A stretch of 64,000 bases of DNA. It comes from a virus. The position numbers and the translations under genes are program-made. Location of the stretch: the IMG/VR virus record IMGVR_UViG_3300006931_000007; one strand, 5' to 3'. Positions 4,747 to 64,000 of the stretch are shown piece after piece (positions within the stretch are counted from its first letter, which is position 1; the number at the start of each line of letters is the position of its first letter). The notes beneath the pieces were generated by a model. The model saw only the letters and a list, made by a program, of their open reading frames with translations, had not been told where the DNA came from and did no database searches.

Positions 4747-4753
4747 TTTTGTG

Positions 4754-41028: not shown

Positions 41029-41042
41029 TAATCTGTATAAGA

Positions 41043-42201: not shown

Positions 42202-42232
42202 GATCTAATCCATTTCCTCAGTCTGTTCGAGA

Positions 42233-42260
42233 AGTATAGTGAGACCGCTCGAAAAGTAAA
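42233..42260 (-). promoter_or_regulatory. phage promoter TTTACT-N16-TATACT
   Basis: Minus strand reads ACTTTACTTTTCGAGCGGTCTCACTATACTTC. It is followed by the variant leader AGGAAATGGAT. Confidence 0.55.
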
Positions 42261-45172: not shown

Positions 45173-45187
45173 AGTGTAGGTCTGAAA

Positions 45188-45216
45188 AGTATAGTTACCA
45201 ACGCTTAAAAAGTAAA
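45188..45216 (-). promoter_or_regulatory. phage promoter TTTACT-N17-TATACT
   Basis: Minus strand reads GGTTTACTTTTTAAGCGTTGGTAACTATACTTTT. It overlaps the stop of the upstream gene. Confidence 0.55.
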
Positions 45217-49011: not shown

Positions 49012-49026
49012 GTTCGCCGCCGGGAA

Positions 49027-49056
49027 AGTATAGTTGTGTGAGTTCGTAAAAGTAAA
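49027..49056 (-). promoter_or_regulatory. phage promoter TTTACT-N18-TATACT
   Basis: Minus strand reads ACTTTACTTTTACGAACTCACACAACTATACTTTC. Confidence 0.5.
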
Positions 49057-49063
49057 GTAATTT

Positions 49064-49276
49064 TCATTGATTCATCGCCGTTCGGATTTCGCGCCGTACT
49101 TGCAGGCGGGCGTTCAAGATCGCGCGGTGGTCGCTCGCCGAGCGCGAACAGGTCACCATGCAAGCCTTACCACAGACCGTGAAGCGGACCTTATAGTGCC
49201 GCTTCCCGTTCTCGACCCGGTACGCAATACCGGCTTCAGCCAGCTCCCGCTTTGTCGCTTCCAGTGTCTCGCTCAA
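49064..49276 (-). CDS. hypothetical protein
   Basis: 70-aa ORF overlapping the primase gene stop. Confidence 0.55.
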   Translation of the reverse strand: MSETLEATKRELAEAGIAYRVENGKRHYKVRFTVCGKACMVTCSRSASDHRAILNARLQVRREIRTAMNQ

Positions 49277-51690
49277 AATGGAATCGGTTCCTCATCCGGG
49301 GGCACCAACTGCGTTTGAACCGCGTCCAGCTTGGGCCAATCGAACGGCCCACCAAAGTTAGTGTCCCAATGTTCTCTGCAAAGATCAACCGGCGGGAGAT
49401 AGATCACATACATGCGTTTCTTGACCAGTACCTCGAAGCCGGTGTCATTCGTCCAGGGCACTTCAACCGTCTCCTGTTTCGAGACCGGATGGCCCGGCGG
49501 GAACGCGCGGAGGAGGAATTTGCCAAACCCGGTCCGACTCATACGGAAGTTGCGGCCCTGGTCCTTGAGGTCCATAACGTAGTCGTCATACAGGAAATCT
49601 TTGATGACCTTTTCCCGCCACTCCTGGTCGCCGCGCAATATCCGACCCTCCCAGAACTTCTCGAACAACCACTGAATTTCGGGGTCCATGCTCAATATTT
49701 TCTGATCCTGCAACGCCTTCGTTTGGGGGACGGCGCGGACTTCGTATTTGCTCAGGTCATAGGTCAGGAGGAAGTGCAGCAGGTTCTCGAAGCCGCCTTC
49801 ATCCAGCTCCAACGACAATTTCTTGAAATAGTTGTGGTCCTGTTTCTTCCCCTCGCCAACTTCCATCACGAAAAAGCGGCGTTCATCGAGACCGGCGGGC
49901 ACCACCCAGTTTTCGTTCGAGGCGAGCATCAGGTGCGTATAGTTCGGCGCCGCCTCGGCGTCTACGCCCTTGCCTTCGATCACCAGGTGTTCTTCCGTGA
50001 TCAGCGTTTTCAGAACTGATTCATGTTTCTTGTCTCCGGCGAAGAAGGCTTCATCACCGAACAGCACGACGGTATCGCGGAGGTGGGCGTTGAAAGAGCC
50101 CACCAAATGCTTCGAGTCCGACACCTGAAGGTAGTGCCGCCCAAACAAGGCCCCGAACTTCTTGGCAAAGAAGCTCTTGCCGGTTCCGCGCTTCCCGCGG
50201 AGCACCACGGCGACCTCTCCCGGGCCGTCCGGGTGCTGAACGGTCCGAGCCATCCAGCCTACCAGGTAGTCATAGTGCTCCTGATTCCCCGAGCAGACGT
50301 TGAGGAATAGATGCTGCATGAAGCCCTTGTGCTTATCGCCCGGGAGCGAATCGCAGGCGAATCCACGCCAGAGGTTGTAAGCGTCGGGAACATCGCGACC
50401 CGGCGAGAAAACAATGGTGTCAAACTGGCGGCGATTCGGGTGATCAATCCAAAAGTTTCCCGCGGCCTTCTCGACCGGCGCGCCGGCTTCGGTACGCCCA
50501 ACAATCACCTTGATGTGGCGGTAACGGTTGCGGAAGTCCTCAAACGATTGCTTGCTGATCTTCGTCCGCTGTAGCGAAGGGTCCATGACCTCGCTGATAA
50601 TTCGGCACTTCCCGCCGATGTCAGAAATGACCGCATGCTTTTCGTTCAGTTTGCGCAGCATCGGGTCGATGGCTTCTTCAAGCGCGCGTTCGATCTGCCG
50701 CAGCGCATAGCCTTCTGGGTCCGGTTTATCGCGGACACTGACCGCAATCTCATTCGATCCGGTGATGACCGCATAGATCATTTCCGGCGGAACTTCGGCG
50801 CGCACGAGGTCGCAACAGACTCTGAACAGCGCCTCAGATCGTGATTGGTATTTCGTCGGGTCGAGCGGGTCCTGTCCGGTCGCGATCAGCGCCAGGGTAT
50901 GGTCCGTGATCGCCTTGCCGTTCTGTTGGGCCCACTCCTTCAGCTCCTCCGTCCCGATATCAGCGACATTGCCCGTCACTCTGACTTTGGGCGGACCGCT
51001 CGCGAGCCCTTGATCACGTGATTGAACCCGCGGCGCCGGGATAAACTGGTCAATGGTGTACAGCGCCGCATCGTTCCATTCTACAAGCGTGGACAATGTA
51101 GGCTGGCGCCCTTTCTTGATCTTCTTCGCTGTCGGAACGTTAATGGTGCCCGGTAGCCGCATGATGCGGTCTACGTTGTGGCAATGGTCCGCCTGGAATA
51201 GCTTCTCCAGCTGAATGTTGTAGGCTTCGAGTTCCTGAGCCTTCTCGACCACGCCGTTGATTTCCAGGCGTTCGCTTGGCTGGAGTTTCCAAAAGCCCTG
51301 ATAGCCACCGCCCGAGTCGATGATGACCGTTGGCGCCGGCTTGAAGTTCTTCAACATCTTCAGCGCGCGGGTCCGCTCCTCGGCGAAATCCTCCCCGGCG
51401 CGCGGGTCAATGTCGATGTGGAGCCATGCCAATCGCGCAATATCTTCCTTGGAGGCTTTATTATCCAACGCCTTCCGAACCGGATTGACGTGAAAGTACA
51501 GATTCTTGATGCCTTGATGACCTTCGATCCAGGCGGCAGCGTCCGTCCACTTGGCCGCGGGAAAGGTCATTGTTTCGGTTTTCCCGTCCGGGATAATCGC
51601 GGTGAGGACCCATGGACCCTCGGGGCTCCACTTCTGAAGGAACTCCACCGCACTTTTTGTATCGTGCTTAACCTTCTTCAGTACCGCCAT
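49273..51690 (-). CDS. primase-polymerase (AEP/RepB'-like) fused to SF3/D5-type helicase
   Basis: Start moved to ATG 51690, just after the upstream TAA. The N-terminal domain has LHIDIDP and DSGGGYQGFWKL. The C-terminal domain has the P-loop LRGKRGTGKSFFAKKF. Confidence 0.8.
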   Translation of the reverse strand: MAVLKKVKHDTKSAVEFLQKWSPEGPWVLTAIIPDGKTETMTFPAAKWTDAAAWIEGHQGIKNLYFHVNPVRKALDNKASKEDIARLAWLHIDIDPRAGEDFAEERTRALKMLKNFKPAPTVIIDSGGGYQGFWKLQPSERLEINGVVEKAQELEAYNIQLEKLFQADHCHNVDRIMRLPGTINVPTAKKIKKGRQPTLSTLVEWNDAALYTIDQFIPAPRVQSRDQGLASGPPKVRVTGNVADIGTEELKEWAQQNGKAITDHTLALIATGQDPLDPTKYQSRSEALFRVCCDLVRAEVPPEMIYAVITGSNEIAVSVRDKPDPEGYALRQIERALEEAIDPMLRKLNEKHAVISDIGGKCRIISEVMDPSLQRTKISKQSFEDFRNRYRHIKVIVGRTEAGAPVEKAAGNFWIDHPNRRQFDTIVFSPGRDVPDAYNLWRGFACDSLPGDKHKGFMQHLFLNVCSGNQEHYDYLVGWMARTVQHPDGPGEVAVVLRGKRGTGKSFFAKKFGALFGRHYLQVSDSKHLVGSFNAHLRDTVVLFGDEAFFAGDKKHESVLKTLITEEHLVIEGKGVDAEAAPNYTHLMLASNENWVVPAGLDERRFFVMEVGEGKKQDHNYFKKLSLELDEGGFENLLHFLLTYDLSKYEVRAVPQTKALQDQKILSMDPEIQWLFEKFWEGRILRGDQEWREKVIKDFLYDDYVMDLKDQGRNFRMSRTGFGKFLLRAFPPGHPVSKQETVEVPWTNDTGFEVLVKKRMYVIYLPPVDLCREHWDTNFGGPFDWPKLDAVQTQLVPPDEEPIPF

Positions 51691-51691
51691 T

Positions 51692-51985
51692 TTACAGCCC
51701 CCAGAACATGCCCAAGCGATCAATCGGCGCGTCACCCGCTTCCATTTGAACTACCCACAAGCGAGTACAGCCAAGTTTCTCGGCGACTTCCTTCTGGGTA
51801 AGTCCTTTACGGCGGCGGAGCAATACACATACCTCATGAGGCTTCGGTGGTCCTGAGAGCGCAACGTTTGGTTTTTGTTCGGCAAGGCCGCGCGCTTTAT
51901 ACTTTGCGCGCATTGCGTTCAGCTTCCGGCGACGGCCTTCCAGCCACTTCAACTCGGAATCTGAAACACTTATTTCGATAGACAT
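51692..51985 (-). CDS. XRE-type helix-turn-helix protein
   Basis: LTQKEVAEKLGCTRLWVVQMEAG is a classic HTH. Confidence 0.65.
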   Translation of the reverse strand: MSIEISVSDSELKWLEGRRRKLNAMRAKYKARGLAEQKPNVALSGPPKPHEVCVLLRRRKGLTQKEVAEKLGCTRLWVVQMEAGDAPIDRLGMFWGL

Positions 51986-52368
51986 TTTAACAACTCCTCA
52001 GTTCTCGGCAGTCTTTCCCACCGGGCGATGACTACAGCATAAAGTTCTTCGCGTGTGGACTTCCCCAAGTAGGCGGACGCTATACGGCCATTGAACAACA
52101 GCCATTCGTTATTACCCACCTTTAGCAACAAAAATACATGACCGCCCGCGCGCTCCCGGCGAACCGCCCAAACACGCTGTTCCTGCGTGTAGTGGTCGAT
52201 TCTCAGCGGCCCGCCGGCCCGCGGCCATTCAGGAGCATATTTCAGCTCAATCCAGCCGTGCGCATAATTGACGTCAGGCGTTCCCGGCACCATATGGTTT
52301 TCAACCCGGATCGGGTCGAGGCCCTTTAGCTTCGGGCGTAGGGCCTCCCACATAGATGACTCAGACAT
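51970..52368 (-). CDS. VRR-NUC / PD-(D/E)xK nuclease
   Basis: GTPDVNY...GWIELKY (PD...ExK) followed by TQEQRVW...AGG. Confidence 0.6.
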   Translation of the reverse strand: MSESSMWEALRPKLKGLDPIRVENHMVPGTPDVNYAHGWIELKYAPEWPRAGGPLRIDHYTQEQRVWAVRRERAGGHVFLLLKVGNNEWLLFNGRIASAYLGKSTREELYAVVIARWERLPRTEELLKCLSK

Positions 52369-52825
52369 GACGGATAGAAACCGTGATGCCTTTGTCCCGG
52401 GCGATGTCCAGGGATTCTCCGACCTTGCGCCGCCACTCCGTTATCCAGGCCTGTTCGCGACCCTCGACGGGCAGAGACGCGAAAACCACGCGACGAATAC
52501 CGGCGGCGGCAGCGCGTTCGATGCATGCAGGGCAGATCGGGAAAGAAGTATAGAGCGTGAACCCCTCCGCCGTCTCGCCATCAAGAAATTCTATGGCGTT
52601 GACTTCCGCATGGACCACGTTCTTGAGTTTGTATTCGCGGTCAGCGTACAGGTGCGGTGAATCATCCTCGCCCGGACGAAAGCCATTGAAGCCTGTGGAC
52701 GCGACGCTGTTGTTGGGCCGAACCAACACAGCCCCAACCTTCGTCGAAGGGTCCTTGCTCCAGGTTCCGACGTGCTTTGCCAGCTCCAAATAACGCTGGT
52801 CCCATCTATCTTGACGCGTGTTCAT
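52361..52825 (-). CDS. dCMP deaminase
   Basis: Zinc motifs VHAEVNAI and PICPACIERAAAAG (HAE ... PCxxC). Confidence 0.8.
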   Translation of the reverse strand: MNTRQDRWDQRYLELAKHVGTWSKDPSTKVGAVLVRPNNSVASTGFNGFRPGEDDSPHLYADREYKLKNVVHAEVNAIEFLDGETAEGFTLYTSFPICPACIERAAAAGIRRVVFASLPVEGREQAWITEWRRKVGESLDIARDKGITVSIRHV

Positions 52826-53007
52826 ACAAGCCCCTTCTCAATAGCAAAACTTTCGCGGAGGAAAATGCTGGTGACTTTTCCGTTCTCTTCACATTCGTCC
52901 GTGATCTGCGACTTCGGGACCCAAACTTCAACGGTTCCGTTATCGACCAGCATTGCCAAATTTGTTTCGGCCTTGACCGTGACTTCAATTTCGACTTCGT
53001 TGCTCAT
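52822..53007 (-). CDS. small hypothetical protein
   Basis: 61-aa ORF with ATGA coupling to the polymerase gene. Confidence 0.5.
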   Translation of the reverse strand: MSNEVEIEVTVKAETNLAMLVDNGTVEVWVPKSQITDECEENGKVTSIFLRESFAIEKGLV

Positions 53008-54971
53008 GATTCATACCCCATCGAATGACCCCAGGAAGCGCCCACCTCCACATCGACTTTTGAGGGGAGTTCGAGCGGCGTACAGTTGCGCATTATCTCC
53101 GCGGCGCGTTCGGCTTCCGCCTTGTCCTCGACGCTGAAGGCGATCTCATCGTGAACCTGAATGATGATGTCAAAGCCCGCGGCGTCGCAATCGACCATGG
53201 CTTGCTTCGTCTGATCGGCGGAGCCGCCCTGGATCAATCGGTTGAAACCCTTATGCGTCCAATCAAAGTTTCCGTCCTTATCGAGCGGGAACCGGCAACG
53301 GCGACCGCTGAGGGTGATGATATAGCCGCGCGACTTCGCGACGTTCTCACATGCCTTGGCCATCTTCTTGATGAATGGCACCTTAGCATCGAAGGTATCG
53401 AGAAGCGCCTGCCCTTCCGGTCCTGCAGCCTCGAACCGGCGAGCCCCTTCTGCCAGCAACGCGCGGCCCTCCTCGCTGTTTATATCGTACAGGCGACCTC
53501 TCGGACCGCGAACGGCGTACATGGTAGGCAGGCCCAGTTTCCGGCACATCTTCGCGCCGCCCATCCCATAGCTCAAGCCCAAATAGATTTCCTTCGCAGC
53601 TTTCCGTTTAATTCCGGCCATGTCGGCCATCATCTGATGGTTGTCCGTGGTCGGGTCGGTGCGGTACTTATCCCGGGCGACGCAGGCGCTGGCCCAAGCC
53701 TGTTGTCCGATAATCTCCCGGCTGATGCTGGCGTAATGGACAGCCATCCGCGGCTCCTGCTGCGAATAGTCGTTTGAAGCCCATAGCCGGCCTTCCTCGG
53801 GCTGATAGATCGCGCGCCACATCGGCGCGAAATCGTCCCGGGCGGGTTGCTGCTGCAAATTCGGGTTCTGACAGCTCAACCGACCGTAGGCCGCGCCCTC
53901 GGATTGACCTGAATCATCGTCTTTCGATTTCCGCAGCTGATTAAACGTACAGTGGATGCGACCGTTGATCATGTGTTCGCGGACGGAGGCACCGAACTGG
54001 CGGAGCTTGCTCACCTTCCGGGCGCGTTCGAGCGCGTTTGCCACCGGGTGGTCTATCCCCTCCAACAGCTCCTTGTCTATCTGCGGCGCTCCCTTGGGCG
54101 TTTTCTGGACACGAACACCAATGAATTCGAGCGCGGGGGCAATAACCTCGGGCTTCCAAACGTCTCCCACATTGACCCGTATTCCTGTTTGGGCGCGGAC
54201 AATCGCCAGTTGTTCGGCTTCGCGTTCGAGGGCCCAACGCTCCACGTATGTGAGGTGCGCTTCATTGATCCGAACGCCGCGGCGCCGTAGCTTGAGGAGG
54301 ACCGGAAGAAGTCGGGATTCAAGGTCATAGACGCCCCACAGGTTTTGTTCTTCAATTTCGCGTTCTTGACGGCGGAGAATATTCAACGGCAACCGCGTGT
54401 CCTCCTCGGCGTATTGCCCAACAAAGCGAGCGGGCAGCATCCACATTCCGGCTTTCGGGTCCACCTTGTAGTCATTCGCGGCGGCGCGCAGCACCGCCTC
54501 ATTCTTGCCCTCAAAACCCCAGCGGGTCGCAATCGACTGCATACTGTAGCTGTTGTGAAGTTCGTTGATCAGCGGGTCAGCAATCTGAATATCGCGGAAG
54601 AAGCGCACCCGGTCAAAGGTGATCTGTTCTTGGGCCAAGAAGTCCAAGTCATAGGGGAGATTCGCGCCGACTATATCGCCGTTGAAGCTCGCGGCCTGCT
54701 CGCGGATATATTTCAGAACGCCTTCCACCGGAAGGTTGTCACCCCCATCGTGCCGGATCGGTAAATAAGCACCCGGGCCATCCTCAATCGCAAAGCTGAT
54801 CCCGGTGATGTAGCTATCGGGGCGACGGACGCCCGGCCCGAGCGTTTTCAGCGTCGGGTCCCGGGTCTCGCAGTCAATCGCGATCCGCTTTGCGCCGGCC
54901 CAGGATGGGAGCGAGTCGAGGCGCGGGGGCCTCCAATCGCTCTGGACGGTATTGAACAGCGGGAATTGCAT
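53004..54971 (-). CDS. family A DNA polymerase with 3'-5' exonuclease domain
   Basis: Exo I IAIDCETRD, motif A NDYSQQEPR, motif B RKAAKEIYLGLSYGMG, motif C IIQVHDEIAF. Confidence 0.9.
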   Translation of the reverse strand: MQFPLFNTVQSDWRPPRLDSLPSWAGAKRIAIDCETRDPTLKTLGPGVRRPDSYITGISFAIEDGPGAYLPIRHDGGDNLPVEGVLKYIREQAASFNGDIVGANLPYDLDFLAQEQITFDRVRFFRDIQIADPLINELHNSYSMQSIATRWGFEGKNEAVLRAAANDYKVDPKAGMWMLPARFVGQYAEEDTRLPLNILRRQEREIEEQNLWGVYDLESRLLPVLLKLRRRGVRINEAHLTYVERWALEREAEQLAIVRAQTGIRVNVGDVWKPEVIAPALEFIGVRVQKTPKGAPQIDKELLEGIDHPVANALERARKVSKLRQFGASVREHMINGRIHCTFNQLRKSKDDDSGQSEGAAYGRLSCQNPNLQQQPARDDFAPMWRAIYQPEEGRLWASNDYSQQEPRMAVHYASISREIIGQQAWASACVARDKYRTDPTTDNHQMMADMAGIKRKAAKEIYLGLSYGMGGAKMCRKLGLPTMYAVRGPRGRLYDINSEEGRALLAEGARRFEAAGPEGQALLDTFDAKVPFIKKMAKACENVAKSRGYIITLSGRRCRFPLDKDGNFDWTHKGFNRLIQGGSADQTKQAMVDCDAAGFDIIIQVHDEIAFSVEDKAEAERAAEIMRNCTPLELPSKVDVEVGASWGHSMGYES

Positions 54972-55447: not shown

Positions 55448-55643
55448 GTTCTAACTCCTTCAGGGCTTCTCGCAATCGGCGAGTTTGTTGTTGGTAAAGA
55501 TATCCGACCAGCATGGCGTCAGGACCCATCAAGGACTTATGGACCTTAACCAGCTGTTCAGCAAGCTCCTCCACCGTATCATATGCGGCATATTTCAGGG
55601 AGGGCTCGGACTTCCAATCAGCCGCGAGCTTTTCCAGGTCCAT
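55428..55643 (-). CDS. small hypothetical protein
   Basis: Start moved to ATG 55643 (GAGGAAG lies 9 nt upstream). The remainder of the 104-aa track ORF is Arg/Ser-rich and non-coding-like. Confidence 0.5.
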   Translation of the reverse strand: MDLEKLAADWKSEPSLKYAAYDTVEELAEQLVKVHKSLMGPDAMLVGYLYQQQTRRLREALKELEHVKRQR

Positions 55644-56181
55644 CGGCCATTGCTTCCTCGAAGAAGTCCGACAGGCGCCCGCGGTTCGAGTTGAAGTTGT
55701 CCACGAAGAAGCGGACCTCACCCGGCAGCGTACCTTCGTCATGGCGTTTCATTAGTACGTCGAAACAAACCTGGAACATTTGCTGGACGCGCTTGTTGCC
55801 AAGGCGGTGTTCTTCCCAGCACCACAGCCAGAGGTCGAGCGTGTCAACGGCCTTGAGCCACTGAGTTTCCTCCTCTGTCAAGACCTGAGCCAATTCAAGC
55901 GTTTCGAGGATCGCTTGTTCAGCCTCCTCATAAACGCGGCCCAGGTCGGGGTTGGAATACTTCGCCGGGGCCGGCATATCACCCAACCAGCGTTCGCCGA
56001 CATCGTGCCACTGTACGGCCTTGATCAGCGCGAGCGACGGCCCGGGGTGAAGCAGGAGGAGCAGCGACAGCGCACCATAACTGTGTTGGGCGATGTTATA
56101 CTGACCGTGATGGGGGATTATATGACACCGGCGCACCGCGCCGGCCTCCCGAGTCGCGAGGACCTGCAAGAATTTATTCAT
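55618..56181 (-). CDS. HD-domain phosphohydrolase (YfbR-like 5'-deoxynucleotidase type)
   Basis: Start moved to ATG 56181, an 8-nt overlap with the ThyA-like stop. H...HD...D pattern: IIPHHGQYNIAQHS ... VQWHDVGERWLGD. Confidence 0.7.
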   Translation of the reverse strand: MNKFLQVLATREAGAVRRCHIIPHHGQYNIAQHSYGALSLLLLLHPGPSLALIKAVQWHDVGERWLGDMPAPAKYSNPDLGRVYEEAEQAILETLELAQVLTEEETQWLKAVDTLDLWLWCWEEHRLGNKRVQQMFQVCFDVLMKRHDEGTLPGEVRFFVDNFNSNRGRLSDFFEEAMADGPGKARG

Positions 56182-57244
56182 ATGCGACTCCGTTATCATT
56201 CGCTTTAGCCTGGCGCTCAAGATAAGCCCGACGCCGCCGCTCAATCCACTCCTTTCCAGCCAGCTGCCAATCAGTCGCCTTGACGTTGTCGAGGTGTTGT
56301 TGAGCTTCATCAAAGCGGATTTCCCCTTGTCCGGTTTTCTTGAACGCTGCGTGGGCCAGCATCATCGGAACCGCGACCCGACGGAAGAAAGGATCACGCA
56401 AACCCATTGCAGTCGGGTTATCCATGAACATTTCCAGATCATCGCGCCACTGCTCCAGATCGGTACTGATCAGCGGGTAGGGCTCGACCTCGGGCATGCC
56501 CTTGCGCCAAGCGTAGGGGTCCATCACGGTCATTCCGGGAACGTCGAAGTTGGCATGCTCCGCGAGAATTTCCATTGTCTTCAACACTTCGGTATAGGCG
56601 TGAAAGTTCGCCGACACCTGACGATATATCCCCTGCTCGACGCCGACGCCCCGGGCGACATACTCGTGAAGATAGCTGAAATGAACCGCGTTGGCGCCGT
56701 AGGCTCCCCATATAATATCGTTGGAGCGATTGGTCACGGTCATATCCAACCGGCCATCGGGAGCGATCTGGAAAATGGCCTGGAGATTGCAGGGAAGGTC
56801 CTTGCCGAGACGGCCCAAGTCAGCGCGCGCGTCCCACATCGAAAGAACCTGGCGGCGGTCGGTCGGGTCCTTCTTCAGCGCGTCGATAATAACAGGGAGC
56901 TGATCGAACAGGAAATGTTTGCGCCAGCGCCAGCCGTAGGCTCCATGGAAGGTTACGCCGTCATCACTGAAGGAGCGCATGCGCTCGACGTACCGGGCAA
57001 CGAATTCCACGTCATTGCGTCCACCCAACATCCAGAGCGATTCGACCAGGTGAAAGAACGGGTTGGCGTCGCGTTCGGCCCAAAACAGAACGCGCTCCGC
57101 CGGGCGCTCATAGACCGTCGTGACCGGCTCCGGGAACACCAGGACGGGTCCATTGCGCGAATCGCGGGCGACGCCTTCCAGCTTCAGCTGGCGGATCGCC
57201 TCGGGTAAGGCTTGATGGACGTTACGGGCACGAATCACTTTCAT
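56174..57244 (-). CDS. ThyA-family pyrimidine C5-methylase/hydroxymethylase (predicted dUMP hydroxymethylase)
   Basis: Thymidylate-synthase motifs: SRNGPV, ESLWMLGG, AYGWRWR, DRRQVLSMWD, catalytic LPCNLQ, and NRSNDIIWGAYGAN. The hydroxymethylase assignment, as opposed to dTMP synthase, is inferred from context only. Confidence 0.75.
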   Translation of the reverse strand: MKVIRARNVHQALPEAIRQLKLEGVARDSRNGPVLVFPEPVTTVYERPAERVLFWAERDANPFFHLVESLWMLGGRNDVEFVARYVERMRSFSDDGVTFHGAYGWRWRKHFLFDQLPVIIDALKKDPTDRRQVLSMWDARADLGRLGKDLPCNLQAIFQIAPDGRLDMTVTNRSNDIIWGAYGANAVHFSYLHEYVARGVGVEQGIYRQVSANFHAYTEVLKTMEILAEHANFDVPGMTVMDPYAWRKGMPEVEPYPLISTDLEQWRDDLEMFMDNPTAMGLRDPFFRRVAVPMMLAHAAFKKTGQGEIRFDEAQQHLDNVKATDWQLAGKEWIERRRRAYLERQAKANDNGVAYE

Positions 57245-57819
57245 TTCTTGGCTCCTTTCTTCTCCGGCGGGAGGCCGAACTGTTTGTTGAGGTCTTGGAT
57301 TGGGAGTGCGGGCAGATTCACCTTGCCTTCGCCGGGGAGGAAATCTGCGCAGAAGGGCGCGATTTCAGGCCATACTTCACAGAGCTTCTTGACGGTGCTA
57401 ACGCTATCGAGGACAGCGCGAGCGGAGCGCCTGGCGTGTTCGCGGGCTTCGTTATGATCGTTGCGGCGTTTACAAAGAACCGCATAACGTTCGCTCATTG
57501 GATCATTGTTAGCCAATACCAACGCGATATTACTGCGGTGTTTATCGAATATCCGGCGGTGTTCCCCGAAACTAACGCGAGACCAATTGTTATCAATCCC
57601 CTCGAAACGGATACGCAAATCATCGTCCGTCGGCAAGGCCCCTTCTGGCATTGCGTTCATAGATTCTTGTATCTTCTTCGGATAAACCTTGTTGTAAATA
57701 TCGTTTCCGAATTTGAGAAAGTCGGCGTTGATCGCCTTATCTTTATCGTCAAATCCAGCTTTTGCGAGGCGAGAGAGCAATTCATCTTTCATCCACGTAT
57801 TCAAGCGAATCGAGGCCAT
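57241..57819 (-). CDS. hypothetical protein inside the hypermodification operon
   Basis: 192-aa ORF, translationally coupled on both sides. No motif recognised. Confidence 0.65.
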   Translation of the reverse strand: MASIRLNTWMKDELLSRLAKAGFDDKDKAINADFLKFGNDIYNKVYPKKIQESMNAMPEGALPTDDDLRIRFEGIDNNWSRVSFGEHRRIFDKHRSNIALVLANNDPMSERYAVLCKRRNDHNEAREHARRSARAVLDSVSTVKKLCEVWPEIAPFCADFLPGEGKVNLPALPIQDLNKQFGLPPEKKGAKK

Positions 57820-57821
57820 TT

Positions 57822-58745
57822 CTATTCTCCGTTTCTGGTAAGGTCAGTGGCTTTGCGCCAGTCATATTTCGAGCGCATCTTGCCGTCTCCGGCTTGAACA
57901 CGTTCGTACTTATCAAACTCGCAAAGCGAGTGTTCCACGTCGCGCATTTCGAGCCGCGGCCACTTCTCCGGCCAGAGCATCGGGTTGGCGTTCATTTGTT
58001 CCATGAGCAGAAACATTTCGTTGTTGGTCTGCTCCTTCTTCGGCTGCGTGTTCAATTCCCGACCATACAACCGATTCAGCCCGCGGATTGCGCCGGGACC
58101 AGCATTGGCCCAAGTCATAATGTCCGGGGCGTCGCGGAGGTAGCGGGTATGACGGAGGTCAGTCACTACCTCATAGGCCATGAAGGGACCCCAGCCGATG
58201 AAATAAGGCTCCTGAAATAAGTCCCAAACATCTTCAAGCGTCGCCGGAGATTCAAGCCGGCACTCAAACTGATCCCGATATTCCCACAAGCGACCGATAA
58301 CGATTTCAGCAATATAACGGTGCTTAGTCCAAACGTACCATGGTTTGTTCGGATCGGACTCCGCGCGGATCATGTACGCGCCGGTGTAGACCTTGTGACC
58401 CATCGCCGCGAGCCCTTCGAGCGCCGTGGTCAAATACTCCGGGGTGAACTCCGGGTGACTCGGCCAAGCCTTCGATTCGATCAGGGCGGCGAGCGTTGGG
58501 GGCCAGTTAATGTAGCGAGCGATACAAAGCATCAACCAGAGGTTCGGGTGATCGGCGTAGGGCTCGCGGATATTCTCGCGAACCCAAATGGTCACCGTGT
58601 CGAGTTCCCGGAAGATGTTACAGAACCGACCGTCACGAAGCACCGGGTCATCGGTCCACGGACCGGGCCAACCTCCGATCCGCTTCAGATAGATGTTGTG
58701 GCGCGCTTTCATAAAGCGGCTGAGGGCTTCGGTTCTTGGGCTCAT
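57822..58745 (-). CDS. aGPT-Pplase-like DNA base hypermodification enzyme, paralogue 1 (tentative)
   Basis: Start moved to ATG 58745 (ATGA overlap with the kinase stop). WTDDPVLRDGRFCNIFRELDTVT and the C-terminal EHSLCEFDKY resemble my memory of alpha-glutamyl/putrescinyl thymine pyrophosphorylases. Context supports this. Confidence 0.55.
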   Translation of the reverse strand: MSPRTEALSRFMKARHNIYLKRIGGWPGPWTDDPVLRDGRFCNIFRELDTVTIWVRENIREPYADHPNLWLMLCIARYINWPPTLAALIESKAWPSHPEFTPEYLTTALEGLAAMGHKVYTGAYMIRAESDPNKPWYVWTKHRYIAEIVIGRLWEYRDQFECRLESPATLEDVWDLFQEPYFIGWGPFMAYEVVTDLRHTRYLRDAPDIMTWANAGPGAIRGLNRLYGRELNTQPKKEQTNNEMFLLMEQMNANPMLWPEKWPRLEMRDVEHSLCEFDKYERVQAGDGKMRSKYDWRKATDLTRNGE

Positions 58746-59479
58746 TGCGGTGCTCCACAGGAGATACAGACGCCCCGAGGACTGATGTTGGGCTTGTCGC
58801 AGCATGTTGTATTCTGAATCGAACTTTTCTGAAGGGGCGCCGGGTACTCAGTGACCCATGGACTATCAGGGAGAACTGATTTGTGGTGGTTTCGCACCTC
58901 TGGGTCAATAGGGTGACGCATAAAATTTATCAACGCTTTGATATCACGCAAAGCCGTCTGCCAATGAAGATCGCAAACAGCCTCGCCATCAAACATAGCT
59001 TTGTCTCGTACTCGCGCTATCGTGCGGTGCTTATCGGCCACCTGATCCTCTTTGATAGGCTTGCCGCCGTTACGCTCCTGAATCCGGCCCAAGCATATCT
59101 CCAGCGGAGTGTCGAGGAACGCCCAGGCCATGCCTCCGTTGGCACGCGACCAATCGCGCCAAGGGCCATAGATAGTGCTTACTACAACGCCCTCGAATAG
59201 AATGAAATCCACCTGCGGATCGCGCGCGACGAATTCCAAAATGTCTTTGGCGGCTTGTTGAGTTTTTATCCGGTCGCAACCAGCTGTGGTCGCGCCCGCC
59301 GCCGCGCGGGTGTAGTCACCAATAATTGCGAGCCCGTTTGGAATATAGGTGACGGGTATGCGACAATCATGCGCGGGCATGACGATAGACTGAACCTGGC
59401 ATAGCGGATCGGTCGCGAGCGAGCGGAGGAGAGTTGTTTTGCCGGAGCCATTACAGCCCCGGATGTTTATGAATTTCAT
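58742..59479 (-). CDS. P-loop kinase (candidate 5-hmdU DNA kinase)
   Basis: N-terminal Walker A RGCNGSGKTTLL. About 245 aa. It is adjacent to the aGPT-Pplase-like and radical SAM genes. Confidence 0.6.
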   Translation of the reverse strand: MKFINIRGCNGSGKTTLLRSLATDPLCQVQSIVMPAHDCRIPVTYIPNGLAIIGDYTRAAAGATTAGCDRIKTQQAAKDILEFVARDPQVDFILFEGVVVSTIYGPWRDWSRANGGMAWAFLDTPLEICLGRIQERNGGKPIKEDQVADKHRTIARVRDKAMFDGEAVCDLHWQTALRDIKALINFMRHPIDPEVRNHHKSVLPDSPWVTEYPAPLQKSSIQNTTCCDKPNISPRGVCISCGAPQ

Positions 59480-59503
59480 GTCGTGCTCCTTTTCGGGTGT
59501 TGC

Positions 59504-60952
59504 TTAATCTATTTGTTTTATTTCGATGAACTGAGCCGGCTCCTGAACAACCGGGGCGCGTTCGATCTTGTGCTTGTAGTCCGGTGAACGGAGGGCCTTG
59601 GCCACGCCGAATATCTCGGAACCGCAAGCGCCTTTTCCTTCGGTTTCGTCGCCGCAGTGGAGACAACCCGACGGCGCGCACTCGGCGACTTCCTCGAATA
59701 GATCAGCGACCTTGTCCCGGGTGTACATCGGAACCTTCTGGCCGTGGCACTGATCCGCCGTGGTGTATTCGCGCCCAACAGACAACCATTTAGGTTCGGA
59801 GGTCCCGGGCTTCCCGCGACGATACTCATAACAGGTCGCATAGGTCATACCCAATTCGGTCGCCCACTTCTGGTACAGCGCATGGGCTTCGAGCCGGTAC
59901 GATTCGACGATGGTGCGTTGGGCACCGGCCTGGTTCTCCGTGAACAAGTCTTGAAAGGCTTTCGCCCGCGCCGGCCCGAACCGCTTTGTCAGGCGTTCGG
60001 TCATCGCCGGAGCCCATGAATAGCCGGCTTCAACGAATTTGACGATGACGTGGTTGTTACCGACCGCGGCGAGCTTTTCAAACAGGCAACGAATATCGTC
60101 ATGGGTTACGATCCCAGGCACTACTGGATTGCACTGAATCGAGGTATAGATGCCCTGGCGGCGAAGCTCGCGGACTTCTTCGAGGTGGGCATCAAGACTA
60201 ATCGCCCCAGGGCTCAACTTTTGCCAGTCCTCGGGATTGCCGGTGTTCAACGATTTCTGGGCGTAGCTGTAGCGATTCTTTTTCAGCAGATCGAACGCCC
60301 AACCCGGATAGGACAGACGGCTGAGAAAGAACACCGGGAGGCCCAAGTCAGTGAACGCCTCGGCGCCGCGCTGGGTGTTATGGTAAACGTCCTCAATCGG
60401 GAGGAAGGGGTCAGTGAAGCTGCTGAAATAGCCGGCAGCTGAAGCGCGGGTCTTGCTCAGCATCTTCCGTACCTGATCGCCATAGTTCAACGGGACACTT
60501 ATCAAACCTGAGCCCCGATAACCGCGGAAGCCGCTGTTGACGTAGCAGAAGGCGCAACCCACGGTACAATAGCCGCCATAGGGTTCCGTCAGGATCGCTT
60601 CGGAGAAACAAGGGCGCGGGCGCGAGCCCTGCTTGTTGTTATCCCGGTCCTGATACCAACCCTGCAACGGCTTCGCGTTCGGTATCCGAAGGTGCGGCAC
60701 GTAGGTCTTGTCATTGAAACCCAAATACACCTTGACCTCACGCATCGACTCGACGGGAGCGTTGCGGATCATACCCACTTTGGCGAGACGGAAACGCGCC
60801 GTCATCCCGGTCAGCTCATCGAATTCCTCTTCAATTGGTCCGAGGAATTCCCGCTGGTTAGGATCGGGACGCATGAAATAATTGTAGGCTTCCTGGGCTT
60901 GTTCACCAGTATCGCCTTTGAGCCATTCGGTGTGGTCAGATTCGGATTGCAA
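59504..60952 (-). CDS. radical SAM enzyme
   Basis: CX3CX2C cluster in YGGYCTVGCAFCYV. TTG start, 8 nt after AGGAG. Confidence 0.8.
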   Translation of the reverse strand: MQSESDHTEWLKGDTGEQAQEAYNYFMRPDPNQREFLGPIEEEFDELTGMTARFRLAKVGMIRNAPVESMREVKVYLGFNDKTYVPHLRIPNAKPLQGWYQDRDNNKQGSRPRPCFSEAILTEPYGGYCTVGCAFCYVNSGFRGYRGSGLISVPLNYGDQVRKMLSKTRASAAGYFSSFTDPFLPIEDVYHNTQRGAEAFTDLGLPVFFLSRLSYPGWAFDLLKKNRYSYAQKSLNTGNPEDWQKLSPGAISLDAHLEEVRELRRQGIYTSIQCNPVVPGIVTHDDIRCLFEKLAAVGNNHVIVKFVEAGYSWAPAMTERLTKRFGPARAKAFQDLFTENQAGAQRTIVESYRLEAHALYQKWATELGMTYATCYEYRRGKPGTSEPKWLSVGREYTTADQCHGQKVPMYTRDKVADLFEEVAECAPSGCLHCGDETEGKGACGSEIFGVAKALRSPDYKHKIERAPVVQEPAQFIEIKQID

Positions 60953-60978
60953 GGGGGTATCTCCTATGAATGAGAAAA

Positions 60979-61008
60979 AGTCTACTCCAGGACGGGGCGA
61001 GAAGTAAA
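60979..61008 (-). promoter_or_regulatory. candidate internal promoter TTTACT-N18-TAGACT
   Basis: A family member with a weaker -10, lying in the 72-nt gap between the PLP and radical SAM genes. Confidence 0.4.
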
Positions 61009-61024
61009 CTATTATTACTTGGAT

Positions 61025-61873
61025 TTAATCGCCGATATTCCAGAAAACTATTGGCTTTCCGGTCGCTACCAGGCCGGCCAGGACTTCGGGCTTGCTGAGG
61101 AACTTCCACGCCTTCGCGTCATAGAACTTGTTACATGGGAAGGGCACATCAATGTCGCGCGCGGCGTCGGCGTAGCCGTAGCCTTCGTCAACGAATTGAA
61201 TGTTAGGCCCGAGCGGGAAACCAACACAACTTTCAATATATTTCCGGGTGGCCTCCTCGCTCCGCGAATAACCCATGTGGAGTATGACCTGATAATTCTT
61301 CAGGAAACCGGCATAATGGAAGCCCTTCAGGACGCCCGCGGCGACGGTCCCCGAACTGATACTGAGCACCAGAATTCCGGTCAGCGGGATATTGCCCAAC
61401 AGACACGTCCGTTCAGCTTCCACGGCGTTTTCGGTGATCGACTCGGGGAGCTTCAGCGCGTTGGGCATCAGGTAGGAATCGGACCAACCCGCGGCCAATT
61501 GTTTCTTCGCTTGGTGGAACAGGACGGAGGAACGCCCGGCCTGTAGCGTTACCATCTGGGCGCCGAAGCCGTGGGCATACTGTTGCTGCTTCCTCGGGAA
61601 GCCCTCAGCGGGGTCCGCTTTATAGCGCGGCCAGAAGTTCACGGCGACCTTCCCGAGCTGCTGACAGACGTAGCTCACGCACCAACCGGCCTTGGAGTGG
61701 AATGTGTCGAGCACGCCAATAAACTTTTCGTCTCGCGCTTCGATATGAGCAACCACCCCTCGCATCTTACTGAAGGACGGCCCCGGGAACGGGGCGCAAA
61801 GGTCCTCGCGCTTGACGAGGATCGGAATGCCGTTGAGCTGGTAGGTCTCCAGCGGAGTATTGTTGACTAGCAC
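61025..61873 (-). CDS. fold-type II PLP-dependent enzyme (ACC deaminase / Trp-synthase beta-like)
   Basis: ILVKREDLCAPFPGPSFSKMRGV parallels the KRxDL...NKxRK lysine motif of the ACC-deaminase/D-Cys desulfhydrase family. GTG start. Confidence 0.65.
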   Translation of the reverse strand: MLVNNTPLETYQLNGIPILVKREDLCAPFPGPSFSKMRGVVAHIEARDEKFIGVLDTFHSKAGWCVSYVCQQLGKVAVNFWPRYKADPAEGFPRKQQQYAHGFGAQMVTLQAGRSSVLFHQAKKQLAAGWSDSYLMPNALKLPESITENAVEAERTCLLGNIPLTGILVLSISSGTVAAGVLKGFHYAGFLKNYQVILHMGYSRSEEATRKYIESCVGFPLGPNIQFVDEGYGYADAARDIDVPFPCNKFYDAKAWKFLSKPEVLAGLVATGKPIVFWNIGD

Positions 61874-62178
61874 GGTTCAATCTCCCAATAGGTCTCGGCG
61901 TGATTCAGGCCCGGGGTGCCGTCTTTCTTGAGCACAAACCCGGTTGCGCGCCAGTGGAATTGCCCGCGGCCCTCGCTGATTAAGGCTATGCGCACAACTT
62001 GCATACTGCTTCCGCGATACGAATAGCCGGTGATTTCGACAATGTCCCCGGGCTTCGCCGGGGATTCAACCAAGCTGGCCTCCGTGTATTTCTCTAACTC
62101 CTCTCGCGCCATCCGCACGGCTTGTTCCAGGCGTTGTAATTCGGCGACTCGGGCGCCGCTCATTTTGACTATGGTCAT
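61867..62178 (-). CDS. hypothetical protein inside the hypermodification operon
   Basis: Start moved to ATG 62178 (AAGGAAA upstream, directly after the upstream stop). Confidence 0.55.
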   Translation of the reverse strand: MTIVKMSGARVAELQRLEQAVRMAREELEKYTEASLVESPAKPGDIVEITGYSYRGSSMQVVRIALISEGRGQFHWRATGFVLKKDGTPGLNHAETYWEIEPC

Positions 62179-62180
62179 CA

Positions 62181-63053
62181 CTATTTCCTTTTGGGCATGC
62201 AATCGAGAAACTGTGCAGCCGCCGGGCTATCCGACACCCAGGGCTCCAATCCGTTGTTTATTTCGTCAATATCGTTCCAGAGCGGATAGTGACCATTCAT
62301 GTGGCTTTTCCACTTACACAGAACGGTCTCAACCTCCTGAATGTTGATGGCGCGGTCGCCGAGCGGCGGCGCGCGGTGCTTTGCAAAGGTCTTTTCAAGA
62401 TAGGCTGTGACACCTTTCAAGATAACCTCGCGCTTCGGCTTCGCCCCTTCCGGGTACTTGTGCGCCTCACGCTGTTCCCAGAGCATCATCGCCGCCTTCT
62501 CCGGGTCCTTGAACATGAATACTGCGGCGGCGTCGAAATCAACCCGAACGCCCAACACACGGTCGATCATGTCTGCGATCTTGAACCCAATCCATGGACC
62601 GAAGCCCCAGTGGCTTTGAGCCCGAGAAGATACCAGCCCCATCGTGAGCGGTATCTGATCATTGGTCGCATACATGTAATATACCATGTTCTCCGGCTGA
62701 TTGCCGTAGCGTTGGCGTAGGGCTTCCACCGCGTCAGTCGCTATCTTCGCCCGGAAGTGACGGCGCTCATGCCCCCGCGGCCAGCGACCTCCAGCCGGCG
62801 ACTCGCGTTCATTCAACGCGGCCTCGCGCATCCAGAACCAGAAGTCATTCCCTTCGTGTTCGCTCAGAAAGCTCGCGACGCCTGCGTGGTAGTAGCACCA
62901 ATAGGCGATAAGCCAACGCTGTACCTGAGCAAGATTGTAAGCCCCATTTTGTCGAGCGTCTACAAGCGCAACATAAATCGGGTCGAGGTCATAGCTGGTC
63001 AAGAGGTGATCGCCGAACGTTTCAATGTCCAGCCTTTCGTAATTACGGCTCAT
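62181..63053 (-). CDS. aGPT-Pplase-like protein, paralogue 2 (tentative)
   Basis: 290 aa. It shares with 57822..58745 a C-terminal E-x3-LC-x-(F/W)-x-K motif ([12 protein letters not shown] versus VEHSLCEFDKY). The N-terminal DLDPIYVAL pattern is recalled for clade-2 enzymes. Confidence 0.45.
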
Positions 63054-63061
63054 GCGGGCTC

Positions 63062-63088
63062 CCGAAAAGAGGAGGGCCAGAGCCCTCC
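63062..63088 (-). terminator. intrinsic terminator upstream of the hypermodification operon
   Basis: Minus strand reads GGAGGGC-TCTG-GCCCTCC followed by TCTTTTCGG. Confidence 0.65.
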
Positions 63089-63095: not shown

Positions 63096-63557
63096 TTAGT
63101 GTTTTGTTTTGGACGGTTTGTGCGCGGTCCGACGCCGCAAGGGCGTTCTTTCGGTCGCATGCTTTGGAATTCGGCAACCCTTCGGCATGATCAGGTGAAA
63201 GTGCTCCTGACCCGTTGAGTCAAATTCCGAGCGAACGCCATAGCCCTTCTGTTTCAAGTCCCATCCGAACCCGGAGCGGACAGTGGCCTCAGTCCAAGGC
63301 CGCGAGCCCCCAGAAAGCGCCTCAATCAGCTCGCTCATCGTCGCGCCTTCCGGTTTCCGCAACATATCCACGAGAATGGACTGCTTGGTGCCAGCAAGGC
63401 AGGATTTGAGCGGGTATCCGGGCGGCTGAAGGTTCGTACCACGCAGAAAGATTCGAGCGGCGACGTGGCGCCGAGTATCGGCCCGGCGGTCACTGCTCTT
63501 TCGCCGTTCCGGTTGAAACGGCGGGGGTTTTTGCTTACTATCTGTTGAAAAGTTCAT
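63096..63557 (-). CDS. winged-helix-like DNA-binding protein candidate, paralogue 1
   Basis: Start moved to ATG 63557, 8 nt after GGAG. A basic N-terminus is followed by ILVDMLRKPEGATMSELIEAL...WTEATVRSGFGWDLKQKGYGV. Confidence 0.6.
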   Translation of the reverse strand: MNFSTDSKQKPPPFQPERRKSSDRRADTRRHVAARIFLRGTNLQPPGYPLKSCLAGTKQSILVDMLRKPEGATMSELIEALSGGSRPWTEATVRSGFGWDLKQKGYGVRSEFDSTGQEHFHLIMPKGCRIPKHATERTPLRRRTAHKPSKTKH

Positions 63558-63564
63558 AACGTAT

Positions 63565-63575
63565 GCTCCATTTCT
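63565..63575 (-). promoter_or_regulatory. conserved leader/SD box AGAAATGGAGC (copy 9)
   Basis: Exact 11-mer. Confidence 0.6.
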
Positions 63576-63645
63576 AGCGTCCGATAATGGACGGAGGTTC
63601 AACCGTAAAATATCGAGCAGAAAAAGTAAAGCGGGTACGTTATTT

Positions 63646-64000
63646 TTATTCTGTCACCGGGTCAAACAGAGAAGTCTGCTTGGCCTGGGCGGCAGCTTGG
63701 GCCTTCGCTTTTCCGCGCAACGGCGTATGGGCCGGCACAGAATAGCCTAGGGTGACTACCAGTTCAAAACGCTCAACGCCTTCTTCATCCACAAAGGATT
63801 GGACGCCGTAGCCTTTCTGTTTCAGGTCCCAACCGAAGCCCGAGCGAACGGTGGCTTCAATCCAGGGTTTTTTGCCGAACGCGAGACCGGCGATCAGTTG
63901 TTCCATCGTCACACCGCCTTTGGTTTGGAGGAGGTCAACCAACGCGGCTTGTTTCGAGCCGGCGCGGCATGGGCGAGGAGCCTTGTGATCATCGGGTGCG
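63646..64000 (-). CDS. winged-helix-like DNA-binding protein candidate, paralogue 2 (N-terminus beyond window)
   Basis: The frame stays open upstream of the track start (…APRPCRAGSKQAALVDLLQTKGGVTMEQLIAGL...). This parallels …LKSCLAGTKQSILVDMLRKPEGATMSELIEAL in paralogue 1, so the gene is 5'-truncated by the window edge. Confidence 0.6.
   Translation of the reverse strand, partial: APDDHKAPRPCRAGSKQAALVDLLQTKGGVTMEQLIAGLAFGKKPWIEATVRSGFGWDLKQKGYGVQSFVDEEGVERFELVVTLGYSVPAHTPLRGKAKAQAAAQAKQTSLFDPVTE

Follow-up and report, generated by a model that had tools for sequence, protein, structure and literature searches.

In Pseudomonas phage M6, about 30% of the thymidine (T) in virion DNA is present as 5-(2-aminoethyl)-2'-deoxyuridine (5-NedU; PMC5889632). 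The pathway has been reconstituted with gp54, gp51, gp53 and gp52 acting in turn (PMC8989533). The kinase gp54 phosphorylates 5-hydroxymethyl-2'-deoxyuridine (5-hmdU) in DNA to give 5-phosphomethyl-2'-deoxyuridine (5-PmdU), and only monophosphorylation was observed. Then, gp51 adds glycine via its alpha-amine, using essential Cys and Glu residues and an exocyclic-methylene intermediate, to form N-alpha-glycinylthymidine (N-alpha-GlyT). The radical S-adenosylmethionine (SAM) enzyme gp53, which carries about two 4Fe-4S clusters, isomerises this nucleoside to C-alpha-glycinylthymidine (C-alpha-GlyT), and the pyridoxal phosphate (PLP) enzyme gp52, with Lys36 as its proposed aldimine lysine, decarboxylates the latter to 5-NedU (PMC8989533). 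Metagenomic contigs with an M6-like organisation have been reported, and 5-NedU was predicted for them (Lee et al., 2021; PMC8989533). The present analysis deals with a gene cluster located at 56174-63053 in a 64,000-nucleotide stretch of the IMG/VR virus record IMGVR_UViG_3300006931_000007 (hereafter the window, meaning the whole stretch). On its gene content and protein sequences, this cluster is a further, divergent and uncultivated case of the known, biochemically characterised M6 system. Its end product is very probably 5-NedU, formed via 5-PmdU, N-alpha-GlyT and C-alpha-GlyT in part of the T residues. The eight genes of the cluster are listed below in the direction of transcription, with their protein identities to M6 (BLASTP).

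62181-63053, minus strand: amino-acid:DNA transferase (AADT; old name aGPT-Pplase2), 290 aa; 71% identical to M6 gp51 over the full length
61867-62178, minus strand: open reading frame (ORF) 103, 103 aa from the ATG at 62178
61025-61873, minus strand: predicted PLP-dependent decarboxylase, 282 aa; 68% identical to M6 gp52 over the full length
59504-60952, minus strand: radical SAM enzyme, 482 aa; 78% identical to M6 gp53
58742-59479, minus strand: P-loop 5-hmdU DNA kinase, 245 aa; 75% identical to M6 gp54 over residues 1-187
57822-58745, minus strand: HMUDK_hel protein (old name aGPT-Pplase1), 307 aa; 66% identical to M6 gp55
57241-57819, minus strand: Nmad5 (nucleotide-modification-associated domain 5) protein, 192 aa; 32% identical to M6 gp56
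56174-57244, minus strand: ThyA-family pyrimidine hydroxymethylase, 356 aa; 74% identical to M6 gp58

An earlier note, made from the letters of the window alone, had described eight co-directional, mostly overlapping genes, and all eight ORFs were verified on the minus strand with the same limits. For the HMUDK_hel gene, the longest ORF reaches 58805, and the start at 58745 is supported by the alignment with M6. A TTG start would extend ORF103 to 61867-62202 (111 aa); gene callers and homology favour the ATG. Within the cluster, junctions are overlaps of 7, 4 and 4 nt or gaps of 2, 2 and 24 nt, and the widest spacer (72 nt) separates the PLP gene from the radical SAM gene. Since nearly every long ORF of the window lies on the minus strand, co-directionality is a genome-wide property and not special to the cluster.

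The order of the genes corresponds to that of the M6 gp51-gp59 cluster, also found in AN14, YuA, LKO4 and other Yuavirus phages. The genes and their orientation are the same, at 64-78% protein identity except for Nmad5 (32%), and the same phage-promoter element precedes the radical SAM gene. More broadly, the order DUF3489/helix-turn-helix, AADT, PLP, radical SAM, kinase, HMUDK_hel, Nmad5, hydroxymethylase, HD, two small ORFs, PolA and dCMP deaminase is common to the window, AN14, M6, LKO4 and YuA. Here it is interrupted by one extra gene, ORF103, between the transferase and PLP genes. Beyond the eight genes, PolA and the dCMP deaminase are 76% and 64% identical to M6 gp62 and gp65. By megablast, parts of the window show only about 73-75% nucleotide identity to M6, YuA, AN14, LKO4 and many other Yuavirus phages that infect Pseudomonas aeruginosa, to Bordetella phages and to one Stenotrophomonas phage. 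We regard the phage as an uncultivated M6/YuA-like siphophage and a family-level relative of the Mesyanzhinovviridae. Unlike M6, the window has a G+C content of about 56% and a metagenomic source, the 103-aa gene between the transferase and PLP genes, a kinase bearing a Cys-rich tail of 58 aa and two tandem DUF3489 genes instead of one; the small ORFs gp50 and gp57 of M6 have no counterpart in it.

Family assignment relied on Pfam profile searches, with PHROG and PDB sequence searches added for some of the proteins. The AADT protein matched Pfam ADDT (PF18724) at 7.5e-29 and, in the PDB, 25qc_A ('Amino acid:DNA transferase', E 1e-139) and the glycinyltransferase gp46 of phage PaMx11 (8z2m, E 1e-87). 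In the gp46-DNA-glycine complex, Asp24, Trp146 and Lys150 hold the glycine while Glu243, Thr244 and Cys247 hold the flipped base (PMC11472151). All six residues are kept in the window protein, as D24, W154, K158, E242, T243 and C246, the last three corresponding to the catalytic E243, T244 and C247 of gp46. The protein is accordingly predicted from its sequence to be a glycine:DNA transferase that would convert 5-PmdU in DNA into N-alpha-GlyT, as the orthologue of M6 gp51.

The kinase matched HMUDK_HMUD1 (PF18748) at 3.6e-18, with 66 bits against a cut-off of 27, and its Walker A motif (GCNGSGKT) is identical to that of gp54, in line with its earlier description as a P-loop kinase. The ThyA-like enzyme, described earlier as having the LPCN Cys, matched Thymidylat_synt at 2.5e-19, with Cys152 as the catalytic residue of LPCN. 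In the PDB it comes closest to the hydroxymethylase MilA (1e-16); thymidylate synthases follow at 5e-11 or weaker. It keeps Asn at the position of the uracil-reading Asn in the PFN of thymidylate synthases, where MilA has Asp. Because this Asn is retained, deoxyuridine monophosphate (dUMP) is the likely substrate, and the enzyme is predicted to be a dUMP hydroxymethylase orthologous to M6 gp58 that supplies 5-hmdUMP.

The radical SAM and PLP classes proposed in the earlier note were upheld by orthology with M6 and by motifs; taken by themselves, the Pfam matches are sub-threshold. The radical SAM protein matched Pfam Radical_SAM at 0.006 and PHROG 9252 at 1.5e-289. Its CTVGCAFC motif (CX3CX2C), at residue 129, is identical to that of gp53, and a C-terminal cluster of C425, C430, C433 and C443 is conserved. 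It is predicted to be the orthologue of gp53 and to isomerise N-alpha-GlyT to C-alpha-GlyT. The PLP protein matched Pfam PALP at 8e-6, under the family cut-off (25.8 against 35 bits), and PHROG 7093 at 2.7e-114. It conserves Lys36 in SFSK, the proposed aldimine lysine of M6 gp52 (PMC8989533), and is predicted to decarboxylate C-alpha-GlyT to 5-NedU as the gp52 orthologue. PDB sequence searches with the radical SAM, PLP and kinase proteins returned no match. Taken together, the catalytic motifs GCNGSGKT, CTVGCAFC with the second Cys cluster, SFSK36, LPCN and VETVLCKWK are identical to those of M6.

Another interpretation would be that the locus has nothing to do with hypermodification, the ThyA-like protein being an ordinary thymidylate synthase and the other genes having a part in DNA repair or in nucleotide metabolism. 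The names that the orthologues carry in public annotations and as PHROG labels, such as 'terminase small subunit', 'DNA repair photolyase' and 'threonine dehydratase', point that way. They go back to older, mistaken annotation, the activities of these proteins having been demonstrated afterwards (PMC8989533), and the specific Pfam families for the 5-hmdU DNA kinase and the amino-acid:DNA transferase were matched well above their cut-offs. The M6 biochemistry in effect refutes this interpretation, which can be given almost no credence. An M6-type T-hypermodification operon, as put forward in the earlier note, is borne out by the profile hidden Markov models, by the 66-78% identity to M6 proteins in conserved order and by the catalytic residues.

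The note had also described the two proteins of about 300 aa as aGPT-Pplase-like paralogues. Both do belong to the old aGPT-Pplase families, in clade 1 and clade 2 respectively; the clade 1 protein matched Pfam HMUDK_hel ('5-hmdU DNA kinase, helical domain') at 7.6e-52. In present-day Pfam, clade 1 goes under the name HMUDK_hel and clade 2 under ADDT, which agrees with the annotation of AN14 and with the table given for M6 (PMC8989533). Between the two proteins, no similarity was found by BLASTP (E 6) and no Pfam cross-match. An AlphaFold2 model of the HMUDK_hel protein (mean local confidence, pLDDT, 89) gave PaMx11 gp46 as its top Foldseek match in the PDB, over the full length, with a probability of 0.97, a template-modelling (TM) score of 0.46-0.48 and a weak E of 0.17; the next PDB match had a probability of 0.08. 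An hhalign comparison of the two proteins (weak, E 0.035) pairs GWGPF with GFGPW and VEHSLC with VETVLC. These scores, each weak, are consistent with the two being distant structural relatives.

The motif that the two proteins share had been given as E-x3-LC-x-(F/W)-x-K; its correct form is V-E-x2-L-C-x-[F/W]. The transferase has the Lys at +1 after it (VETVLCKWK), the helical protein at +2 (VEHSLCEFDK). The HMUDK_hel protein keeps the Glu/Cys dyad as E271/C275, and on our reading of the hhalign alignment its F188 and E192 align with the glycine-binding W154 and K158 of the transferase. Only the clade 2 protein, AADT, is an amino-acid:DNA transferase; the HMUDK_hel protein is not a second one, and the idea of two transferring enzymes was dropped. 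The start of its gene overlaps the stop codon of the kinase gene (ATGA), which suggests that expression of the two is coupled. The HMUDK_hel protein is probably a helical partner of the kinase. In M6, its orthologue gp55 is dispensable in vitro for making N-alpha-GlyT (PMC8989533).

Because of orthology, synteny and conserved active-site residues, the steps from the kinase to the PLP enzyme can be transferred from the M6 biochemistry, and the following route may be proposed. First, the ThyA-like enzyme (56174-57244) would hydroxymethylate dUMP, and 5-hmdU would presumably be incorporated by the phage PolA. Second, the kinase (58742-59479), probably together with the translationally coupled HMUDK_hel protein (57822-58745), would monophosphorylate 5-hmdU in DNA to 5-PmdU. 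Older literature, and the earlier note in its background on such phages, had the DNA kinase pyrophosphorylate 5-hmdU; that view is outdated, only monophosphorylation to 5-PmdU having been observed for M6 (PMC8989533). Third, AADT (62181-63053) would use its Cys/Glu dyad to displace the phosphate and add glycine via the alpha-amine, giving N-alpha-GlyT. Fourth, the radical SAM enzyme (59504-60952) would isomerise this product to C-alpha-GlyT, and fifth, the PLP enzyme (61025-61873) would decarboxylate C-alpha-GlyT to 5-NedU.

The earlier note had held the final adduct to be unpredictable and possibly new. Since the transferase, radical SAM and PLP proteins are orthologous to M6 gp51, gp53 and gp52, whose reactions were reconstituted, and since the glycine-binding residues are kept, 5-NedU is the expected product and a new adduct is unlikely. 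Several points weigh on the other side. The PLP and radical SAM proteins are 68% and 78% identical to the characterised enzymes, levels at which a change of specificity is possible. Because their Pfam scores fall under the family cut-offs, the assignment of these two proteins rests on orthology with M6. ORF103 occupies the variable tailoring slot between transferase and kinase, where PaMx11 and Stenotrophomonas phage Sonora carry other genes. Finally, the kinase tail and the divergent Nmad5 protein have no assigned role.

The slot itself differs among the described relatives. PaMx11 (gp46-gp49) shares the kinase and glycine:DNA transferase steps with the window and proceeds from N-alpha-GlyT to 5-aminomethyl-2'-deoxyuridine (5-NmdU) and its acetylated form 5-AcNmdU; its slot holds a flavin-dependent lyase and an acetyltransferase, whereas that of the window holds the PLP and radical SAM genes, so the late chemistry differs. 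No flavin adenine dinucleotide (FAD) domain or acetyltransferase domain was found among the ORFs and Pfam matches of the window's transferase-kinase slot. Among named phages, Sonora (Mesyanzhinovviridae) has the nearest relative of the HMUDK_hel protein (71% identity), and it shares the backbone of AADT, kinase, HMUDK_hel, Nmad5 and ThyA. Its slot holds a single gene for a 274-aa 'putative membrane protein' (L057 4633-5457; MZ326860.1 35132-35956), without radical SAM and PLP genes. This Sonora gene could be a third tailoring cassette, with its own adduct. Many IMG/VR loci (L075-L078, L082-L088, L090, L092, L093, L098 and others) carry the same enzyme set in another order (PLP, radical SAM, AADT, kinase, HMUDK_hel, ThyA). 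The transferases at these loci reach no more than 37-44% identity to the one in the window, so their amino-acid specificity and product may differ from those of M6.

Two ORFs of the cluster had been described as orphans, which holds for neither. That at 57241-57819 encodes a divergent orthologue of M6 gp56 with a clear Nmad5 match in Pfam (5.5e-32). The other, ORF103, belongs to a family of at least 176 representative clusters: an indexed search gave two close homologues, and an exhaustive phmmer search gave 176 clusters at E<=1e-3, mostly of about 100 aa. The exact protein is also found in two JGI metagenomes and on the ENA metagenome contig ERZ27251806 k141_7473632, which has the same gene order and product lengths as the window from the DUF3489 gene to PolA. 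ORF103 has no counterpart in AN14, M6 or YuA, and none at 62 IMG/VR loci that carry the radical SAM gene. Its dN/dS ratio (non-synonymous to synonymous substitution rates) is 0.083 with respect to L002, a close relative of the window (Logan SRR22868758 contig), which argues that it is a real gene. ORF103 and 63 members of its family gave no Pfam or PHROG family, and a pattern scan of IMG/VR gave no relative. In an AlphaFold2 model (pLDDT 95.8), a 30-residue N-terminal helix precedes a small KOW/SH3-like beta-barrel. Foldseek returned sub-threshold KOW-like matches only in the PDB (EF-P, NusG, Spt5; all E >= 0.1) and uncharacterised phage proteins in BFVD. Membership of a known family was accordingly rejected, none of Pfam, PHROGs, the IMG/VR scan and Foldseek against the PDB giving an assignment.

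These data bear on the possibility that the M6 scaffold is retained with another end product, where ORF103, the divergent PLP and radical SAM enzymes or the modified kinase would lead not to 5-NedU but to a further derivatised or differently rearranged aminoalkyl-deoxyuridine. ORF103 stands in the slot of the product-determining genes (PLP and radical SAM in M6, FAD lyase and acetyltransferase in PaMx11, the 274-aa protein in Sonora), is under purifying selection and is unique to the window lineage among the 62 related loci. Against this, its model shows neither an enzyme-like fold nor a cofactor motif, its homologues occur in phages without T-hypermodification genes nearby, and the junction that holds it is a generic insertion hotspot. 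Moreover, the transferase shows no change in any of its substrate-binding or catalytic residues, nor do the radical SAM and PLP enzymes in their cofactor motifs. A different end product is thus improbable in our assessment, and 5-NedU remains the preferred prediction.

ORF103 homologues sit among small early genes of unrelated phages. A tie of ORF103 to T-hypermodification was rejected, since kinase, AADT and ThyA genes are missing from three homologue contexts and ORF103 itself from all of the 62 radical SAM loci. One of the homologues lies on a contig (L010, Logan SRR10034625; 615-2454 and 6001-6318) on which there are also genes for a protein resembling adenylosuccinate synthase (PF00709), for a weak match to dATP/dGTP pyrophosphohydrolases (PF04447) and for a YfbR-like HD protein. 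This gene set is typical of phages with 2-aminoadenine (the Z base). In L008/L009, an ORF103 homologue is located near an N6/N4 methyltransferase gene and a gene resembling 3'-phosphoadenosine-5'-phosphosulfate (PAPS) reductases. The Z-base-like neighbourhood may be a coincidence.

Other inserted genes are found at the same junction and at the next one. Between AADT and PLP, Bordetella-phage-like loci have a 76-aa ORF with a hydrophobic N-terminal segment and a CSKCGRV Zn-ribbon-like motif (L018 6035-6265; L023 1597-1827), followed in L023 by an additional 168-aa GIY-YIG endonuclease (1824-2330). LKO4 has an HNH endonuclease between PLP and radical SAM. The cluster is an insertion hotspot that takes up homing endonucleases as well as small accessory genes. 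ORF103 is most likely an unrelated accessory gene that arrived there, and probably not a pathway enzyme.

The kinase differs from its relatives by a C-terminal extension of 58 aa (approximately 58742-58915, minus strand), rich in Cys and ending in CCDKPNISPRGVCISCGAPQ. Its four Cys could bind Zn. The tail was found in none of 88 kinase-bearing isolate phage records, and tblastn of the tail against 50,697 phage records gave nothing. A match in L068 proved to be a tblastn artefact, the L068 kinase being 184 aa long. The L002 kinase keeps its reading frame through an indel-rich linker. Conservation of the tail between divergent kinases was considered as proof of function and withdrawn, because the identical last 21 codons lie in a 97%-identical recombination block with a breakpoint at about 58810. 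It could be imagined that ORF103 and this Cys-rich tail are working parts of the modification machinery, possibly DNA- or protein-binding specificity factors that alter which T is modified, the density of modification or the final adduct; we attach only a slight probability to this.

The comparison with L002 also reveals mosaicism. The kinases of the window and L002 are 72% identical in amino acids, while the flanking genes are 99-100% identical. The kinase gene and parts of the HMUDK_hel gene form divergent blocks, sharply bounded at about 59420, 58810, 58356 and 58200, a pattern that looks like homing-endonuclease-associated mosaicism. At the position of the Nmad5 gene (57241-57819), L002 carries a 130-aa HNH-endonuclease-like ORF (14063-14455). 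Since an HNH endonuclease takes the place of Nmad5 between flanks of 99-100% identity, the Nmad5 protein is probably dispensable.

It could be argued from this mosaicism that the pathway is truncated or inactive, one late step failing, with DNA that contains 5-hmdU, N-alpha-GlyT, C-alpha-GlyT or little modification. The divergent kinase, the exchange of Nmad5 for an endonuclease and the foreign tail gained by the kinase fit such a view, as does the fact that M6 itself modifies only about 30% of T. However, all ORFs are intact, all catalytic residues are conserved, and none of the genes compared between the window and L002 has a dN/dS outside 0.00-0.21. In addition, the PLP and radical SAM proteins are 100% identical in the two despite a dS of 0.13-0.18, which indicates strong purifying selection. 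A failing pathway is therefore very unlikely, somewhat more so than a different adduct, and a functional route to 5-NedU is retained as the preferred interpretation. ORF103, the kinase tail and the roles of HMUDK_hel and Nmad5 offer modest leads, and they are no evidence of a new chemistry.

As to its significance, the cluster extends the M6-type 5-NedU pathway beyond the Yuavirus isolates of Pseudomonas aeruginosa to a divergent soil-metagenome phage of about 56% G+C. At 64-78% protein identity, the genes and their active-site residues are conserved, and so is even the phage promoter inside the cluster. The DNA of the phage is expected to resist many T-sensitive restriction enzymes and to give an aberrant nanopore signal at T. 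As M6-like contigs with predicted 5-NedU were already reported by Lee et al. (2021), no new question is opened.

Two elements of the intergenic regions were also considered.

60978-61008, minus strand: YuA-type phage-specific promoter motif, directly upstream of the radical SAM gene
63064-63088, minus strand: candidate terminator hairpin, between the DUF3489 gene and the transferase gene

The first had been proposed as an internal promoter (60979-61008), and homology with a YuA repeat supports this, with an exact span of 60978-61008. The element reads TTTACTTCT-N15-TAGACTT. Its boxes TTTACTTCT and TAGACTTTTTC are invariant in the window, L002, M6, AN14 and LKO4, and the spacer differs. It is positionally homologous to the YuA repeat_region 10500-10527 (28 nt), one of five such repeats in YuA, which is annotated in GenBank as 'putative sigma70 promoter requiring phage-encoded cofactor' (annotation of Ceyssens et al., 2008). 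By ONT-cappable-seq, nine YuA transcription starts, of which four had been reported before, were found to have a conserved non-sigma-70 motif in common (Putzeys et al., 2024; PMC10914365).

The YuA promoter repeat has the motif CTTTACTTCT-N-(C)TA(T/G)ACTT and is repeated several times per genome at intergenic sites of the gene strand, one copy preceding the radical SAM gene, as in the window. For repeats of this type (CTTTACTTCT-N-CTATACTT), a scan of the window with TTTACTTYT-N11-16-TAKACTT gave five copies, each of them on the gene strand, where 0.00 would be expected: 41042-41070, 42232-42260, 45187-45216, 49026-49056 and 60978-61008. The four further copies (TTTACTTTT-N11-15-CTATACTT, minus strand) are intergenic and lie in the early/replication region. 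Unlike the YuA repeats, the window copies mostly read TTTACTTTT, and their spacers of 11-15 nt show no sequence conservation. The copy at 49026-49056 is located downstream of an 820-aa ORF (49273-51735) and a 70-aa ORF, apparently like the YuA repeat 22639-22666, downstream of the primase gp26 and gp27.

An exact-match scan of IMG/VR with the motif gave 42 matches, of which 30 were unrelated AT-rich sequences and 12 were M6-like and biased by the query; the set was re-drawn via the radical SAM protein. In this unbiased set of upstream regions, most loci whose radical SAM identity is 77% or higher have the element, and its -10-like box varies at the third position only (TAGACT, TAAACT, TATACT). 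It stays beside the radical SAM gene where 450-520 nt of inserted DNA (homing endonucleases) part this gene from the PLP gene. A terminator hairpin was considered for the same spacer; it occurs in differing registers in the window and M6 and not in all relatives, and, because the element stays with the radical SAM gene despite the insertions, a promoter was preferred. A scan for the sigma-70 consensus did not list 60978-61008 (8 of 12 positions match). Judging from these comparisons, the element is most likely a phage-specific promoter. Since such a promoter precedes the radical SAM gene, the cluster would be organised in at least two transcription units.

A terminator had been placed before the operon at 63062-63088. 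Its components exist: a hairpin at 63071-63088 (GGAGGGC-TCTG-GCCCTCC) is followed by TCTTTTC on the gene strand. However, the signal is indistinguishable from chance, with 14 terminator-like sites in the window against 11.4 +/- 3.9 in shuffled sequences and a fold of -17.8 kcal/mol for the 42-nt spacer (z -0.59). L002 retains the hairpin with a longer stem and a T5 run. It is possible that the hairpin is an intrinsic terminator.

Downstream of the eight genes, the cluster runs on unbroken through the HD gene, two small ORFs, PolA (53004-54971) and the dCMP deaminase (52361-52825).

55618-56181, minus strand: HD-domain YfbR-like 5'-deoxynucleotidase (Pfam YfbR-like, 6.9e-12; 64% identical to M6 gp59)

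The gene of this nucleotidase overlaps the hydroxymethylase gene by 8 nt, and its product is predicted to be a co-transcribed nucleotide-pool enzyme. Upstream of the operon, two tandem genes encode DUF3489-domain proteins (63096-63602 and 63646-63942, minus strand), with respective identities of 65% and 53% to the C-terminal portion of M6 gp49, the product of the single 227-aa gene of M6.

The window appears to be a nearly whole, circularly permuted genome of about 67 kb. The low-coordinate ORFs 3022-4776 (584 aa), 2061-2630 (189 aa) and 1071-1898 (275 aa) correspond by size and order to the SNF2-helicase, DUF7307 and Pam3_Gp34-like genes of L002. In L002, these three genes are located upstream of the genes for a RecD-like helicase, a ribonucleotide reductase and the DUF3489 proteins. 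If this correspondence holds, the helicase and ribonucleotide reductase genes of the phage would fall in the roughly 3 kb that lie outside the window.

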